From Niabella sp. 22666 (GTDB lineage Bacteria > Bacteroidota > Bacteroidia > Chitinophagales > Chitinophagaceae): DNA of 64,000 nt. The stretch lies in assembly GCF_052044285.1 (NCBI RefSeq), contig NZ_JBQEMT010000001.1. One strand, 5' to 3'. A model generated the notes under the pieces. The model was not told where the DNA came from. It worked only from the letters and a program-made list of their open reading frames with translations, and did no database searches. The translations under genes and the position numbers were made by a program. Positions 3,240-61,194 of this stretch are shown piece by piece (within the stretch, counting starts at the first letter, position 1; every line of letters starts with the position of its first letter).

Positions 3240-4451
3240 ATGCAGTATATATTAAAACTAACATCGATAGTAGCCTTCACGGCCATCTTAGCATCCTGCG
3301 GTGGTGGTAAAAAAGAGCAAAACAGCGCCCTGAACGATAAAAAAGTGGAGCTGGAAAAACTGAAAGGCGAGCAAAAAAAGATATCAGACCAGATCAATAA
3401 ACTCAATGATGAAATTGCTGCTTTAGACCCCAGCTTTGTAAAAGCTAAGCTAGTATCCGTTGAAAAAATCGGCAGCGATAATTTTGATCATTTTATCGAC
3501 CTACAAGGAAAAATTGACGCCCGTAAAAATGCTTATGTAGCGCCACGTAACGGGCAGGGCGGTATTGTTCGTGCCTTATATGTAAAACAAGGCGATCGTG
3601 TTCGCCGCGGTCAGACCCTTTTAAAGTTAGACGATGCTCTACTTCGCCAGCAATTGACAGGAGCTCAACAGCAGGTTGCAACCGTTAAGGCACAGTTGGA
3701 ACTGGCTAAAACAACTTACCAGCGTCAGAAGAATCTATGGGATAATAATATAGGTGCCGAAATGCAGGTGATACAGGCTAAAGCCAATGTTGATCAGCTA
3801 ACAGCACAGGTACAGGCAGCAGAAGCACAGGCCGGTGCTGTACGCGAGCAGTTAAGCTTCTCCAATGTTACTGCAGATATCGATGGTACTATTGACCAAT
3901 TGAATATAAGAGTAGGTGAAATGTTTACGGGCATGAGCGCAACAGGTCCGCAGATATCTATTGTAAACACCTCTCAATTAAAGCTACTGGTAAATGTTCC
4001 CGAAAATTACCTGGATCGTGTAAATGTAGGTTCTTCTATGACGGTTACATTGCCTGAGGCTAACGATAAGAAAATTCAAACTAAAGCCTCAGTTGTAAGT
4101 AAGCTGATCGATCCATCTACACGCAGCTTCTATGTTGAGGCTAATGTACCTTCTGATCCGGCTATCCGTGCCAACCAGATTGCCAGAGTACAAATTGAAG
4201 ACTACTCCAGGCCAGACGCCATCACGGTTCCCGTAAATACTTTACAAACCGACCAGCAGGGCAAGTTTGTTTTGGTTGCTGTTACTGAAAATAAAAAACT
4301 GGTAGCGCGCAAGAAAAGGGTTATTCCTGGTGAACTGTACAAAGACAGACTGGAGATTAAATCCGGGCTTGCTAATGGCGATCAGCTGATTACTGAAGGC
4401 TTCCAGAGTGTTTACGATGGTCAGGTAATTACTACCACGCCAGTTAAGTAA
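3240..4451 (+). CDS. Efflux RND transporter periplasmic adaptor subunit (HlyD/MFP)
   Basis: 403 aa with a lipoprotein-like N-terminus (ILASCGG), coiled-coil hairpin and beta-barrel regions. Confidence 0.85.
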   Translation: MQYILKLTSIVAFTAILASCGGGKKEQNSALNDKKVELEKLKGEQKKISDQINKLNDEIAALDPSFVKAKLVSVEKIGSDNFDHFIDLQGKIDARKNAYVAPRNGQGGIVRALYVKQGDRVRRGQTLLKLDDALLRQQLTGAQQQVATVKAQLELAKTTYQRQKNLWDNNIGAEMQVIQAKANVDQLTAQVQAAEAQAGAVREQLSFSNVTADIDGTIDQLNIRVGEMFTGMSATGPQISIVNTSQLKLLVNVPENYLDRVNVGSSMTVTLPEANDKKIQTKASVVSKLIDPSTRSFYVEANVPSDPAIRANQIARVQIEDYSRPDAITVPVNTLQTDQQGKFVLVAVTENKKLVARKKRVIPGELYKDRLEIKSGLANGDQLITEGFQSVYDGQVITTTPVK

Positions 4452-57802: not shown

Positions 57803-58567
57803 TTAAGCAATATTCAACGGCCTTTTATTGCTTTTGGCTACCTGTTTTAACTCGTTCCACCTCCGTAACATTAAAACAGAAGTAATAGCAACCAGAGAAA
57901 ATAAAGCAATAATTAGTTTTTCAGTCTTTGCCGGCGATGAGGCAACTGCAAATCCGAGCATCATTACCAATGCCAGGGTGGTATAAAGTCCTGCCTTACT
58001 CGAAAGGAAACTGGGCGTTCTTTCAATGAATGCCGGGCTGCCCTGTTGATTAAAAGCAGCTATTTTTCCCAGTACTCCATCAATAATTTCAGTAGTTTGT
58101 AATTCAACACCCTTTACCCTCTTTTTGTGCACCAGCGTCAGTTTAGTCACGGATCCAGATGATCTGAAAATAAACCTGGTTCGGGTCAAAACCTGGCTGG
58201 AGTGATCGAAGCAAGAGAAGCTAATAAGATCTTTCAGATCGATTTTCTCTATCCGTTGAACCGCATTGTACTTATTCAGATACTCCAAATCGAAGCCCAT
58301 CTCTGTTTCAACCACTTTGATAAAATAACCAAAATAGGTTGGGAAGCATACAGCATAAACAAACATAAATACTATACCAGCGGCTGCAATGATGATGAGC
58401 GCGATTCTCAGCTGATCCATATCTTTCGCACACTTGGCGGCAACCAAACTTGCGATGGTTAGCGCGGCTACTCCTAAAATAAATTTATGTGTTGTAGAAT
58501 AGGTGATCATAGCTATTCCACTAATATACGAAAAATCAGCCAAACATCGCTTCCGCAATGGCCACAC
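57803..58567 (-). CDS. Hypothetical membrane protein
   Basis: Several TM helices. I recognise no family. Its 5' end overlaps the downstream ORF by about 30 nt, so the true start may be internal. Confidence 0.4.
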   Translation of the reverse strand: MWPLRKRCLADFSYISGIAMITYSTTHKFILGVAALTIASLVAAKCAKDMDQLRIALIIIAAAGIVFMFVYAVCFPTYFGYFIKVVETEMGFDLEYLNKYNAVQRIEKIDLKDLISFSCFDHSSQVLTRTRFIFRSSGSVTKLTLVHKKRVKGVELQTTEIIDGVLGKIAAFNQQGSPAFIERTPSFLSSKAGLYTTLALVMMLGFAVASSPAKTEKLIIALFSLVAITSVLMLRRWNELKQVAKSNKRPLNIA

Positions 58568-59243
58568 TTTCCGGCTTACCTACATCTACCCAGCGATCGC
58601 CGCTATGTTCAAATCCGGCAATTTTATGTGTCTTTGCCAGATCCAGGTATAGATCAATTAAAGAGAACTTCCCGTTGAATTGAATATGATCAAATACTTC
58701 ATACTCAAATATCACTACACAGTCATAGGCTTTCGCCACCAAATTGTCTTTAGGCACCGATATACGTTCTTCTCCCGTTGCATTATTTCTCCAACCACAA
58801 AGAACATTATGTTCATCAAACAGCAGGTTACGTGATGTTTTTCGATTACTGACTGCAAATGAAATTAACGGCTTTTCCTGCTCGTGGAAACGCAAGAGTT
58901 CGTTTATATCAAGATCGGTTAAGATGTCTGCATTACAGGTAATAAAACGCTCACCGGGTTTGAAGAGATTTTTAGCATGGAGTAATCCACCACCGGTTTC
59001 CAACACATAATCGCGTTCATCACTAATAATAATATTAGAACCCCACCCATTATTTGCATGCAAGGCCTCTTCTATCTGATCAGCAAAGTGATGCACGTTT
59101 ACAACAACATCTTTAATACCATACAGCTGCAGATACTCAATATTGCGTTGCAGCAAGGGTTTGCCATTAACGGGTGCCAAAGCCTTGGGGTGGTTGTCCG
59201 TCCAAGGTTTAAAACGGGTGCCGAGGCCGGCACAGAAGATCAT
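58536..59243 (-). CDS. MurU-like sugar-1-phosphate nucleotidyltransferase (N-acetylmuramate alpha-1-phosphate uridylyltransferase family)
   Basis: From the internal Met: MIFCAGLGTRFKPWTDNHPKALAPVNGKPLLQRNIEYL is the NTP_transferase G-loop. The ORF track merges this gene in frame with an upstream DUF559 relic. Confidence 0.7.
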   Translation of the reverse strand: MIFCAGLGTRFKPWTDNHPKALAPVNGKPLLQRNIEYLQLYGIKDVVVNVHHFADQIEEALHANNGWGSNIIISDERDYVLETGGGLLHAKNLFKPGERFITCNADILTDLDINELLRFHEQEKPLISFAVSNRKTSRNLLFDEHNVLCGWRNNATGEERISVPKDNLVAKAYDCVVIFEYEVFDHIQFNGKFSLIDLYLDLAKTHKIAGFEHSGDRWVDVGKPESVAIAEAMFG

Positions 59244-59290
59244 TCCGCGCGCGCCCCCAGCCCCTGAAGGGGAGGGCTCAGCTGCAATTT

Positions 59291-59594
59291 CCGACTGTAA
59301 TTGATTATTCGTACTTATACTCATTACAATAAAATCTTCGATTTTTTTAATTACGCTTTCTAAATGCTTTTCAACTTCGCTGTTTGTAAACCTCAATACC
59401 CGTAAACCGTCTGCCTCTAATAACTCTTGCCGAATGATATCATTGGCCCTCACATCTTCTTTCAAATGTATACTACCATCCACTTCTATAACCAGTTTTA
59501 ATGCATGGCAATAAAAATCAAGAATGTAGATTGAGTAGGGATGTTGCCTTCTAAATTTTATCCCCAGAGGTTTTGTTCTCAAATATCCCCACAA
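59291..59594 (-). pseudogene. N-terminally truncated DUF559 endonuclease-domain relic (TTG start, no stop before murU), flanked by CCCCT..AGGGG..GGGCT repeats
   Basis: LGIKFRRQHPYSIYILDFYCHALKLVIEVDGSIH...LRVLRFTNSEV matches the DUF559 (Vsr-like) core. The usual 30-aa N-terminus or so is missing. It reads through into the MurU-like ORF. Confidence 0.55.
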
Positions 59595-59697
59595 AATCTC
59601 TTCTGCATAAGTGCACTGATTACGTAGCTCCCTTGCCCGCTAAAATAAAAATCTTCCGGCACCAGCATGCATTTTTCGTTTCATAGATTTTAATGTT

Positions 59698-61194
59698 TTA
59701 GCAGCGCTGGCCTCCCCTTTTAGGGGTTGGGGCTTGCGCTGGCTCATTTATCCAATTCTTCGCATCCTGCACATAATGGCATAGTTCAATTTTTACCTTG
59801 AACTTATTCTTCAAATGTCTTACCAATGCATCGGCTGCATATACACTTCGATGCTGACCACCGGTACATCCGAAACTCACGTAAAGGCTGTCAAATCCAC
59901 GTTTAATATAATCTTCCACACTTATATCTACTACATCAAAAACGCTGTGCAAAAACTCGGGCATCTTTGTTTGTTGCTCCAGGTATTGAATTACTTCTTT
60001 ATCGCGCCCTGTCTGGCATTTCATACTTTCTACACGACCCGGATTCAGGATACCCCGGCAGTCAAAAACAAAGCCACCACCATTCTCTTCGTCATCTATA
60101 GGCAACCCTTTTTTAAAAGAGAAACTGCAAATTTTCACTATCAAAGGTGTGTCTTCCGTGGCTTGCACAGGCGTAAATTGTTGTATAATGCTATCGTCCA
60201 CGCATAATTGCAACACCTTTTCAAACTCAGGTAAAGCAATACCCATCGGGTGGGTTTGCAGGAAAGACTTTAAATTTCTAAGCGCTAACGGAATACTGGT
60301 GAGGAAGTGCGCTTTTCTTTCAAACAGCCCCCTGAATCCATAAGCGCCTAAAACCTGTAACAGTCTTATCAATACATAACCATTATATTGGCTTATAAAA
60401 TTCAATGTATTCAGCGGCTTGTCGAGTAAAGGTTCCAATGCATTCATATAGTCCTGCAGCAGGTTGCGCTTCCAGTCATCGGGTAGAGCAGCACGTGCCT
60501 GCCAAAGCAAGGATGCCACATCGTACTGGGGAGCGCCCTTCATGCCTCCCTGGTAATCGATGAAATGAACTGAATTATCTTTCATTACCTGGATATTCCG
60601 GCTTTGAAAATCGCGGAACATAAAAAACTTATGGTCGGTATGCGTCAGGTAATTACTCAACGCCTCAAAGTCGTCGATCAGCTTTTGCTTGTCGTAAGGC
60701 TTGCGCAAGGCATCCAGAAAATAATATTTAAAATAAAGCAAATCAGCCATAATAGCCTGTTTGCCAAATTCGCTATTGGTCAAACATTTGCTATAATCCA
60801 GGTCTTTATCGCCTTCTACCTGCAAGCGGGCTAACTGTTGCAGGCTTTCTTTAAAAAGATCATAAATCGCCGGTGTGTAGCCTTCGCTTTCCAGGCGATT
60901 GATCAGGGAAACATCTCCAAAGTCCTCCTGTAAATAAAACTGGCGGTCTTCGCTTATGGCATAAATATTCGCGATCGGTAAGTTTTTCTGAGAAAAATTT
61001 TCTGAGAAATATAAAAAAGAATTGTTCTCCGGCACATTAGCGCCATAGGTCCCGATCACCGAACCACCCTCTTTGTCCCAGATACGGAAGTAGCGTCGCT
61101 CGCTACCTGCCTGTTGTAATACATCGATAGAAGCGGGTTCATTCCCGCTCCAGCTTTTATAAAGATCCTGTATGGCTTCAATTTTTTCCTGCAT
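59698..61194 (-). CDS. Bifunctional protein with an N-terminal AmgK-like anomeric sugar kinase (APH/phosphotransferase fold) fused to a RapZ C-terminal domain
   Basis: The N-terminus has the FRDFQSRNIQV catalytic-loop and IDYQGG motifs, which are AmgK/MurK-like. The C-terminus has GLPIDD...FVFDCRGILNPG...TGRD...SFGCTGGQHRSVY, which closely matches the RapZ C-terminal domain (GCTGGxHRSV). Confidence 0.75.
   Translation of the reverse strand: MQEKIEAIQDLYKSWSGNEPASIDVLQQAGSERRYFRIWDKEGGSVIGTYGANVPENNSFLYFSENFSQKNLPIANIYAISEDRQFYLQEDFGDVSLINRLESEGYTPAIYDLFKESLQQLARLQVEGDKDLDYSKCLTNSEFGKQAIMADLLYFKYYFLDALRKPYDKQKLIDDFEALSNYLTHTDHKFFMFRDFQSRNIQVMKDNSVHFIDYQGGMKGAPQYDVASLLWQARAALPDDWKRNLLQDYMNALEPLLDKPLNTLNFISQYNGYVLIRLLQVLGAYGFRGLFERKAHFLTSIPLALRNLKSFLQTHPMGIALPEFEKVLQLCVDDSIIQQFTPVQATEDTPLIVKICSFSFKKGLPIDDEENGGGFVFDCRGILNPGRVESMKCQTGRDKEVIQYLEQQTKMPEFLHSVFDVVDISVEDYIKRGFDSLYVSFGCTGGQHRSVYAADALVRHLKNKFKVKIELCHYVQDAKNWINEPAQAPTPKRGGQRC

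Follow-up and report, generated by a model that had tools for sequence, protein, structure and literature searches.

The window analysed here, 64 kb of DNA from Niabella sp. 22666, carries between the genes of an AmgK-like kinase and a MurU-like nucleotidyltransferase a 502-nt segment (59244-59745) that, judged against related genomes, is a gene cassette inserted at the ancestral ATGA overlap of amgK and murU. The best explanation of the whole, to which we give a probability of about 0.7, is a repeat-bounded cassette for a Vsr-like nuclease of the DUF559 family that was inserted between the two genes and has been freshly inactivated in strain 22666. The insertion, its inverted repeats, their translation into both neighbouring proteins, the constraint on intact copies, repeated decay, alternative cassettes at the same site and the dispersal of the repeat as doublets are directly established. 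All genes of the region lie on the minus strand, and the parts of the locus, with its open reading frames (ORFs), are as follows.

59698..61194, minus strand: AmgK-like kinase ORF of 498 aa, with an APH phosphotransferase domain (PF01636) and a RapZ C-terminal domain (PF22740)
59745-59701, followed by the stop TAA at 59700-59698: last ~15 codons of AmgK, insert-derived DNA by comparison of the tail with relatives
59701..59739: left terminal inverted repeat, on the upstream side, with palindromic core CCCCTTTTAGGGG at 59714-59726; it is read as the C-terminal tail of AmgK
59331..59684, minus strand: DUF559 (Vsr-like PD-(D/E)xK nuclease) pseudogene, ATG at 59684-59682, domain at about codons 15-118
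59640..59642, minus strand: nonsense codon TAG, codon 15 of the DUF559 frame, its sole disabling lesion
59592..59594, minus strand: TTG, earliest start codon past the TAG and codon 31 (Leu) of the original DUF559 frame
59244..59330, minus strand: DUF559 C-terminal extension, the linker into MurU, holding a conserved internal ATG (59324-59322)
59247..59285: right terminal inverted repeat, on the downstream side, with palindromic core CCCCTGAAGGGG at 59261-59272
58536..59243, minus strand: MurU-like sugar-1-phosphate nucleotidyltransferase (PF00483), 235 aa from the canonical ATG 59243

Inverted repeats around the insert

The two palindromic cores are the only CCCCT(N2-5)AGGGG sites in the window, where 0.14 would be expected, and 0 of 100 shuffles reached two sites. 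The first-pass annotation, made from the letters of this DNA alone, had correctly seen two GC-rich repeats bracketing the DUF559 core but had taken them for direct repeats; the arms are inverted over 39 nt with 72% complementarity, each with a palindromic core. Its further claim that the upstream repeat supplies the C-terminus of AmgK holds good, as this repeat encodes the last ~15 residues (EPAQAPTPKRGGQRC before the stop), and at loci without the DUF559 cassette AmgK ends in ...NWxN or ...NWxNPLPEKK. In relatives that carry the cassette, the left arm is read as an AmgK tail ending NTPPAPKGEQ or NTPNP. The family consensus in these relatives is ACCCCCARCCCCTAAAGGGGAG on the left and AACTCCCCTTTAGGGGYTGGGGGT on the right, which are mutual reverse complements, and these terminal inverted repeats, of the kind known from insertion sequences (IS) and miniature inverted-repeat transposable elements (MITEs), are near-invariant across hosts whose MurU proteins are just 63-70% identical. 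The right repeat of the window is read as ..AEPSPSGAGGARG, directly before the canonical MurU Met.

The DUF559 frame and its passage into murU

The presence of a DUF559 domain between the AmgK-like and MurU-like ORFs is borne out by ORF and profile searches. Upstream of the TTG, the frame reads from ATG 59684 as MKRKMHAGAGRFLF, one in-frame TAG and RARELRNQ.... With the TAG read through, it matches Pfam DUF559 (PF04480) over profile positions 5-107 of 109 (E 1.5e-30; 105.7 bits against a cut-off of 20.6), aligns to PDB 3HRL (E 3.5e-13) and keeps all 19 of the 19 invariant columns tested in a 12-sequence DUF559 alignment, including the core RRQH, the D in LDF and ExD(G)xxH. The domain had been described as N-terminally truncated with a TTG start; covered from ATG 59684 in this way, it is not truncated, and the TTG at 59594 does start a mechanical ORF of 352 aa but is merely the first start codon after the TAG. 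Interrupted at codon 15, the window copy lacks an uninterrupted DUF559 ORF and is a pseudogene, while by every other sequence test it is a member of the family.

In the DNA alignment the TAG of the window stands against CAG (Gln) in Niabella sp. CJ426 and in the related locus L001 (loci of the comparison are numbered with L), a single C>T change. The CJ426 protein is near-identical to the conceptual translation of the window and has Gln at codon 15. The nuclease of strain 22666 was killed very recently, by a single nonsense mutation. The ORF, otherwise complete and intact in CJ426, is not the truncated relic or footprint first supposed.

The DUF559 frame has no stop codon of its own and enters the canonical MurU Met at 59243 as codon 148, as the first-pass annotation had noticed in describing an in-frame fusion. 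In the public annotation, MurU starts at ATG 59324, and the 262-aa product from this codon is identical to WP_440752258.1 (Niabella sp. 22666), whose 90% cluster includes 381-382-aa 'DUF559 domain-containing proteins' of Niabella sp. CJ426 and N. yanshanensis. Intact fusion ORFs of 381-390 aa are found in at least 6 Niabella sequences, including CJ426 (382 aa, WP_427860453.1), N. yanshanensis (WP_114791816.1), L004 (390 aa) and L005 (388 aa). Such fusions are already public, deposited under the name 'DUF559 domain-containing protein', and caution is advisable in annotation, as Niabella entries of this name with ~382-390 aa conceal a MurU-like enzyme.

Since intact fusions are shared across Niabella assemblies, the stopless in-frame read into murU is a lineage-wide state of Niabella and no error or local accident. 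A sequencing or assembly error that makes or hides a stop would need to touch one base only, the size of the lesion seen, yet the stop-free in-frame layout is common to independent assemblies, the public 262-aa call of MurU from the internal ATG fits a TAG in the deposited assembly, and other relatives carry different, independent lesions. We regard such an error as extremely improbable.

Outside Niabella, DUF559 ends at a stop of its own, the right arm is translated as MNSNDRNSPLGVGGAMIFS, and gene calls of 249-261 aa place the start of MurU at an ATG further upstream, in overlap with the end of DUF559. In Niabella the two frames are merged, and an internal Met before MurU is conserved in all fusion loci. 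The canonical MurU ATG has become CTC or CTT in L004, L007 and L009, and also in four loci (L006, L017, L021 and L053) in which a different cassette, that of a four-helix-bundle protein, has been found at the junction; the MurU of N. aquatica starts MDNRQWTMDY, within the repeat of that second cassette. With the canonical ATG lost, MurU must start in cassette-derived sequence at those loci, and the initiation of MurU has thus become dependent on such sequence. The window keeps both ATGs, the one at 59324 in AT-rich DNA and the one at 59243 inside the GC-rich hairpin.

The intact fusions of 381-390 aa in at least 6 Niabella sequences and the absence of the canonical ATG from L004, L007 and L009 could also be read as signs of a genuine bifunctional DUF559-MurU protein, broken in the window. 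This is very unlikely, because outside Niabella the cassette stops itself and MurU begins in another frame, every fusion locus keeps the internal Met ahead of MurU, MurU is intact where DUF559 is broken (the window, L001, L009 and L050), and the two activities have no plausible biochemical connection. On the reading that we favour, MurU would most likely be made separately from ATG 59324, or from 59243.

Gain, exchange and decay at the junction

A scan with MurU yielded 80 species-representative loci, all from Chitinophagaceae or from unclassified Bacteroidota metagenome-assembled genomes (MAGs) save one mislabelled MAG, and the closest of them is a Niabella MAG with 94% MurU identity. Junction states were scored on 84 two-gene loci (78 of the 80 species representatives, five loci of DUF559 homologues and the window) with flanks spanning 3-10 kb; as these loci share ancestry, their independence is overstated by the counts. 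The junction is empty in 39 loci, holds DUF559 in 23 (13 of them species representatives), a four-helix-bundle gene in 6 and other inserts in 16. At the empty loci AmgK has the longer of the tails given above, ...NWxNPLPEKK, and its stop overlaps the start of MurU (MKAMIFS) as ATGA. The orientation of the DUF559 cassette is identical in all 23 filled loci.

On a host tree built from AmgK and MurU, filled junctions are scattered among empty ones, even within sister pairs (L047/L052, L034+L078/L040+L080, L064/L028 and L051/L057), and the window together with L001 is sister to L002 and L003, which hold the four-helix-bundle cassette. Because ancestral-type tails stand beside filled sisters, a single ancient insertion plus simple deletions is ruled out, and the empty junctions of ancestral type imply that several gains, or allele replacements by homologous recombination, would be needed. 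The empty junctions of L037, L049 and L057 (...ACCCCCTAAATAG) seem to have lost a cassette secondarily, with a part of the left repeat retained. The proposal that something with the build of an element was inserted into a conserved amgK-murU pair is thus upheld by the predominance of empty ATGA junctions among relatives, the interleaving of states, the conserved inverted repeats and the alternative cassettes.

Among these alternatives, the gene for the four-helix-bundle 23S rRNA intervening-sequence (IVS) protein (PF05635, E 1e-28) sits at the same amgK-murU site with inverted repeats of its own, of the CCATAGTCGATAG type. It was observed in the sister Niabella loci L002, L003, L018, L006, L021 and L053 (junction ~3530-4001), with remnants in L017 and L011; in L011 a piece of the four-helix-bundle gene stands together with the GC-rich repeat of the right arm of the DUF559 cassette. 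In several of the four-helix-bundle loci the MurU start codon lies within the right repeat (MDHRLSTIDISQALIF). The IVS-protein cassette is therefore like the DUF559 cassette in being a small ORF with its own inverted repeats, at the identical site, that donates the MurU start, and unlike it in its unrelated protein and unrelated repeat. A third protein at the junction is a YhcG/DUF1016 PD-(D/E)xK nuclease, encoded in L033 (2897-3982), and ORFs of ~280 aa lie there in L030 (3139-3960) and L031 (3134-3991), of which the L030 ORF gave no Pfam match when scanned. The junctions of L040, L080, L028, L054, L061 and L060 have taken up short hairpins from other repeat families (GAACCACATAGACACATAGG...CCTATGTG..., GGATAATTGATAATG...), and hairpin inserts of the CACATAG type are among the occupants. 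The amgK-murU site is a hot spot where palindromic inserts of several kinds are found.

The DUF559 gene itself has decayed several times over, each time independently. In addition to the nonsense codon of the window, L001 carries a ~137-nt insertion plus indels in DUF559; frameshifts are present in L007, L009 and L051, and deletions at the 5' end in L050 and internally in L035; in L013 the gene is almost wholly deleted with both repeats left. In L013 and L035 the remnants resemble cassettes on their way to becoming a bare doublet of repeats. Presence or absence at one conserved site, accompanied by degeneration, is the pattern of homing-type elements. The locus offers a natural series of empty, intact, murU-fused, freshly killed (the window), decayed and repeat-only states for DUF559, a family of very many members to which hardly any biology has been assigned. 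The series shows small nuclease genes acting as optional, repeat-bounded cassettes, whose repeats are written into neighbouring proteins and even donate the start codon of MurU.

Intact copies are constrained. Their ratio of nonsynonymous to synonymous substitution rates (dN/dS) is 0.08-0.19, against 0.04-0.06 for MurU; synonymous divergence (dS) is saturated for most pairs, and the least saturated pair, L085/L089, gives 0.107 for DUF559 at a dS of 0.66. These values show long-term purifying selection on intact DUF559. The 120 best database homologues are proteins of ~125 aa with 61-73% identity, and 6 of the 6 close homologues sampled (P0093, P0057, P0099, P0013, P0118 and P0007) lie at an amgK-murU junction. 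The names 'HisF' and 'cyclase' that JGI attaches to many homologues of ~126 aa (P0002, P0006, P0007 and others) had hinted at a different gene neighbourhood; they are mislabels, the sampled contexts all being amgK-murU.

Purifying selection is also what would be expected of an ordinary host nuclease, a Vsr-type enzyme of mismatch or damage response residing in the amgK-murU operon, with the repeats as unrelated structural or RNA elements. The constant position and orientation of the gene and its translational coupling to murU agree with this, as does the Caulobacter DUF559 protein VsrA, which belongs to the SOS response and has a DNA-damage phenotype in vivo (PMC12907096). So does the RNA fold of the whole element, which pairs both repeats (z = -3.4). 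We nevertheless think a host repair function with unrelated repeats unlikely. The gene is very patchy among close relatives, unrelated cassettes swap in at its site, its pseudogenisation is frequent, and no cytosine methyltransferase gene was seen among the adjoining genes examined. The repeats bracket DUF559 genes across phyla, and they are neither intrinsic terminators nor Rfam matches: a scan for intrinsic terminators and sigma-70 promoters at the repeats, which have no T tail, found none, and an Rfam scan of 58900-60000 gave chance-level matches only. Two terminator hairpins, another way of seeing the arms, are unsupported by local folding, in which the upstream arm reaches z = -3.8 and the downstream arm and the arms of L078 are no better than shuffles. 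RNA covariation was too weak to retain, the variable dinucleotides being complementary by eye in ~8 of 14 loci where ~5 are expected.

Several observations weigh against the reading that we favour. Filled junctions set beside empty ones show no visible target-site duplication, and the boundaries vary slightly between lineages. Among close pairs (0.13-0.29) the distances of DUF559 rise with those of the hosts, and beyond them they level off at 0.30-0.40; the comparison of the two, as a test of horizontal transfer, found no near-identical copies in distant hosts and no discordant close pairs. This pattern agrees no better with active homing than with long vertical residence and loss, or with allele replacement, and the purifying selection could equally mean a function beneficial to the host. 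The cassette is single-copy in each stretch examined: a search for further DUF559 copies with the same flanking repeats, which the first-pass annotation had suggested, returned none within the window, which holds no second DUF559 copy of any kind, and it is the repeats alone, not several coding copies at different sites of a genome, that are dispersed. Extra copies of the repeat are also absent from the window and from the 21 kb of CJ426. The word 'selfish', at first used of the element, is thus a label that we infer rather than observe, with intact copies under purifying selection and no recent horizontal spread found.

For the repeat-bounded nuclease cassette that we favour, the analogies suggest how it could come and go. 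Vsr, the homing enzyme I-Bth0305I (PDB 3R3P) and DUF559 have been listed together as one family (PMC3424549), and Caulobacter VsrA causes SOS-inducing DNA damage in vivo when its motif is unmethylated (PMC12907096). By analogy with Vsr, VsrA and homing-type nucleases, the DUF559 protein is predicted to be an active DNA nickase or endonuclease. It would cut at or near the palindromes, or cut empty alleles, and the cuts would be mended by homologous recombination; such recombinational repair would let the cassette be gained, kept or lost at a permissive junction. The loss of function in strain 22666 would be the usual next step of a cycle of gain and decay.

The likeness to known systems is partial. 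Free-standing homing endonuclease genes, including that of I-Bth0305I, are likewise small nuclease ORFs between conserved genes, polymorphic at one site and recurrently degenerate; the cassette differs from them in its terminal inverted repeats, its long-term purifying selection and the lack of visible recent horizontal spread. With Vsr and VsrA it shares the Pfam family and fold class, VsrA being an example of a DUF559 protein able to damage DNA in vivo (PMC12907096), while the gene studied here is optional, bracketed by repeats, situated in a cell-wall recycling operon and seen with no cytosine methyltransferase that is linked to it or a known cognate. Unlike classical IS, the cassette has no transposase and no visible target duplication and is present in a single copy.

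Dispersed repeats and DUF559 in other clades

The repeat reaches far beyond the junction. The 21-mer of the right arm, CTCCCCTTTAGGGGYTGGGGG, is present in at least 120 metagenome contigs, and almost none of the sites among the matches listed is near DUF559, amgK or murU. The origin of these contigs, and of the IMG/VR contigs mentioned below, was assigned from base composition and gene content alone. When a partner was searched for within 250 nt, a distance at which ~5% of random windows hold such a match, an inverted partner was found 7-168 nt upstream in 51 of the 105 scorable sites among the matches listed and downstream in 0 of 105. Because the partners lie upstream only, the repeat exists as oriented L...R doublets with the polarity of the cassette. 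Furthermore, extra copies away from the junction are present in 5 of 22 loci bearing a cassette or its remnant and in 0 of 59 others (p=0.001, the loci being phylogenetically non-independent).

Like the arms at the junction, the dispersed copies are translated. At 25 of the 108 sites listed, the frame that encodes SPLG(V/A)GG runs on downstream through 100 codons or more with no stop, against 8 and 0 for the other two frames, and 12 of the sites listed extend an ordinary gene at its N-terminus, such as an MnmE-like one (MNTNKIISNETNSNSPLGAGGTIAAISTAPG). In L169, L155, L168, L187, L205 and others, unrelated genes (MnmE-like, MurC-like) start with M, an N/K/S-rich stretch and NSPLG(A/V)GG, which the repeat encodes. 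In some Bacteroidota, the repeat accordingly supplies start codons and N-terminal extensions genome-wide. A solo CCCCTAAAGGGGAG was observed in an in-frame insertion of ~18 codons in a loop of MurU (...DAPKGEILKP...) in L034 (~4518) and L047 (~3891), and tandem arrays of the repeat with a 41-nt period occur in L102 (2332-2434) and L198.

MITEs invite comparison, as do the palindromic elements of Rickettsia, which are inserted in frame in genes. They resemble the present repeats in that short palindromes are tolerated and translated within coding sequence, here as the AmgK tail, the N-terminal extension of MurU, the MurU loop of L034 and L047, the NSPLG(A/V)GG extensions and the linkers of an IcmF-like gene described below. 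They differ in repeat family and phylum, and in that a protein-coding version of the unit exists here.

In other clades too (L150 and L177), DUF559 genes lie among GC-rich palindromic repeats, whose sequence is particular to the clade. A divergently transcribed IcmF-like gene, with B12-binding, MeaB and mutase domains, was seen to hold an in-frame DUF559 domain on the minus strand of L013 (1000-1720), L035 (1040-1560) and L088 (288-644), where DUF559 is bracketed by the stop-free GC-rich repeats CCCCCGGTGGGGG and CCCCCACCGGGGG. At ~1700-2000 in L025, L042 and L049 the pair of repeats stands alone at the IcmF-like site and is read as Pro/Gly-rich linkers flanking the N-terminal helix of MeaB.

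Sixteen DUF559 loci from IMG/VR (L211-L226) have a GC content of 59-73%, and 7 of the 7 checked have inverted repeats of 25-65 nt, 74-100% identical, beside the ORF. In these loci the two arms can differ by compensatory changes that preserve the local hairpin, and a LexA-box-like GAAC-N7-GAAC lies upstream of DUF559. Several of the contigs end within the hairpin, which suggests a multi-copy repeat. With domain coordinates used, the best-scoring inverted repeats near DUF559 reach a median score of 19.5; random 350-nt intervals give 8, with a 99th percentile of 12 that 92% of 26 DUF559 loci exceed.

Escherichia coli K-12 has a DUF559 gene as well, ycjD (L228, NC_000913.3 1351200-1351800), which has a CCCTCTCCC...GAGGGGG repeat at its end and the inverted partner of this repeat 154 nt downstream; E. 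coli genomes carry the repeat at a median of 19 places each. It probably belongs to the BoxC family, whose published count and length it fits (PMC2267715), the comparison having been made on these two properties. Within a limited searchable library, no paper was found that describes the repeat-bounded DUF559 architecture, the junction polymorphism, the repeat family or ycjD in these terms.

These associations recall the repetitive extragenic palindromic (REP) sequences and their REP-associated tyrosine transposases (RAYTs, also TnpA-REP). In a system of that kind, DUF559 would be the cognate enzyme of GC-rich palindromic repeats, as autonomous partner or domesticated helper, the repeats would spread as oriented doublets like MITEs or REP doublets forming hairpins (REPINs), and the gene would lie between inverted copies of its own substrate. 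The 21-mer spread over at least 120 contigs mostly away from DUF559, amgK and murU, the oriented doublets among the matches listed, with the polarity of the cassette, the remnants of L013 and L035 that resemble cassettes reduced to doublets, and the excess of extra repeats in cassette-bearing loci all speak for it. So do the palindromes about DUF559 in L150, L177, the IcmF-like gene and all seven IMG/VR loci checked, the inverted-repeat scores and the repeat that adjoins ycjD.

Like the cassette, REP/RAYT systems and REPINs consist of a single-copy gene between two inverted short palindromic repeats, with the repeat dispersed, in the present case in metagenome contigs, as singlets and oriented doublets, mostly vertical descent and frequent loss. 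Unlike it, they have an HUH/Y1 transposase of the IS200/IS605 type, in place of which stands here a predicted PD-(D/E)xK nuclease of ~120 aa, Vsr-like and with no known transposition chemistry. The 85 kb sampled from two Niabella genomes hold no dispersed repeats, and the polarity of gene and repeat differs by clade, L...R here and R...L in L177 and the GC-rich contigs. The association could also reflect the lodging of such genes in repeat-rich junk spots, and the loci are phylogenetically non-independent.

We therefore put forward only tentatively a second system like REP/RAYT, in which DUF559 might be the partner enzyme of GC-rich palindromic repeat families in several phyla and the amgK-murU cassette its coding member. 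The repeat families so proposed would be the CCCCTAAAGGGG doublets of Bacteroidota, the long hairpins of GC-rich proteobacteria-like contigs and perhaps the BoxC-like repeat of ycjD. Should the nuclease indeed act on these repeats, this would account for how a widespread class of short palindromes arose, and for the odd Pro/Gly-rich tails and N-terminal extensions of Bacteroidota proteins.

Some details of the neighbouring genes remain to be given. Downstream of murU lies an ORF of 254 aa (57803-58567, minus strand) that overlaps the 3' end of murU by ~30 nt and gave no Pfam match; in CJ426 a gene of 235 aa, likewise with no Pfam match, is called at the equivalent position. The nucleotidyltransferase contains the NTP_transferase domain and scores 122.5 bits against NCBIfam MurU (NF045761), below the equivalog cut-off of 250, and 'MurU-like' would be the safe label for it. 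The kinase scores 49 bits against NCBIfam AmgK, whose equivalog cut-off is 550, and by the same reasoning of profile scores it is to be called only 'AmgK-like'. Its RapZ C-terminal domain (PF22740) is recognized with E 4e-32, and the fusion of APH with this domain is kept in the AmgK-like kinases of all Chitinophagaceae loci examined.

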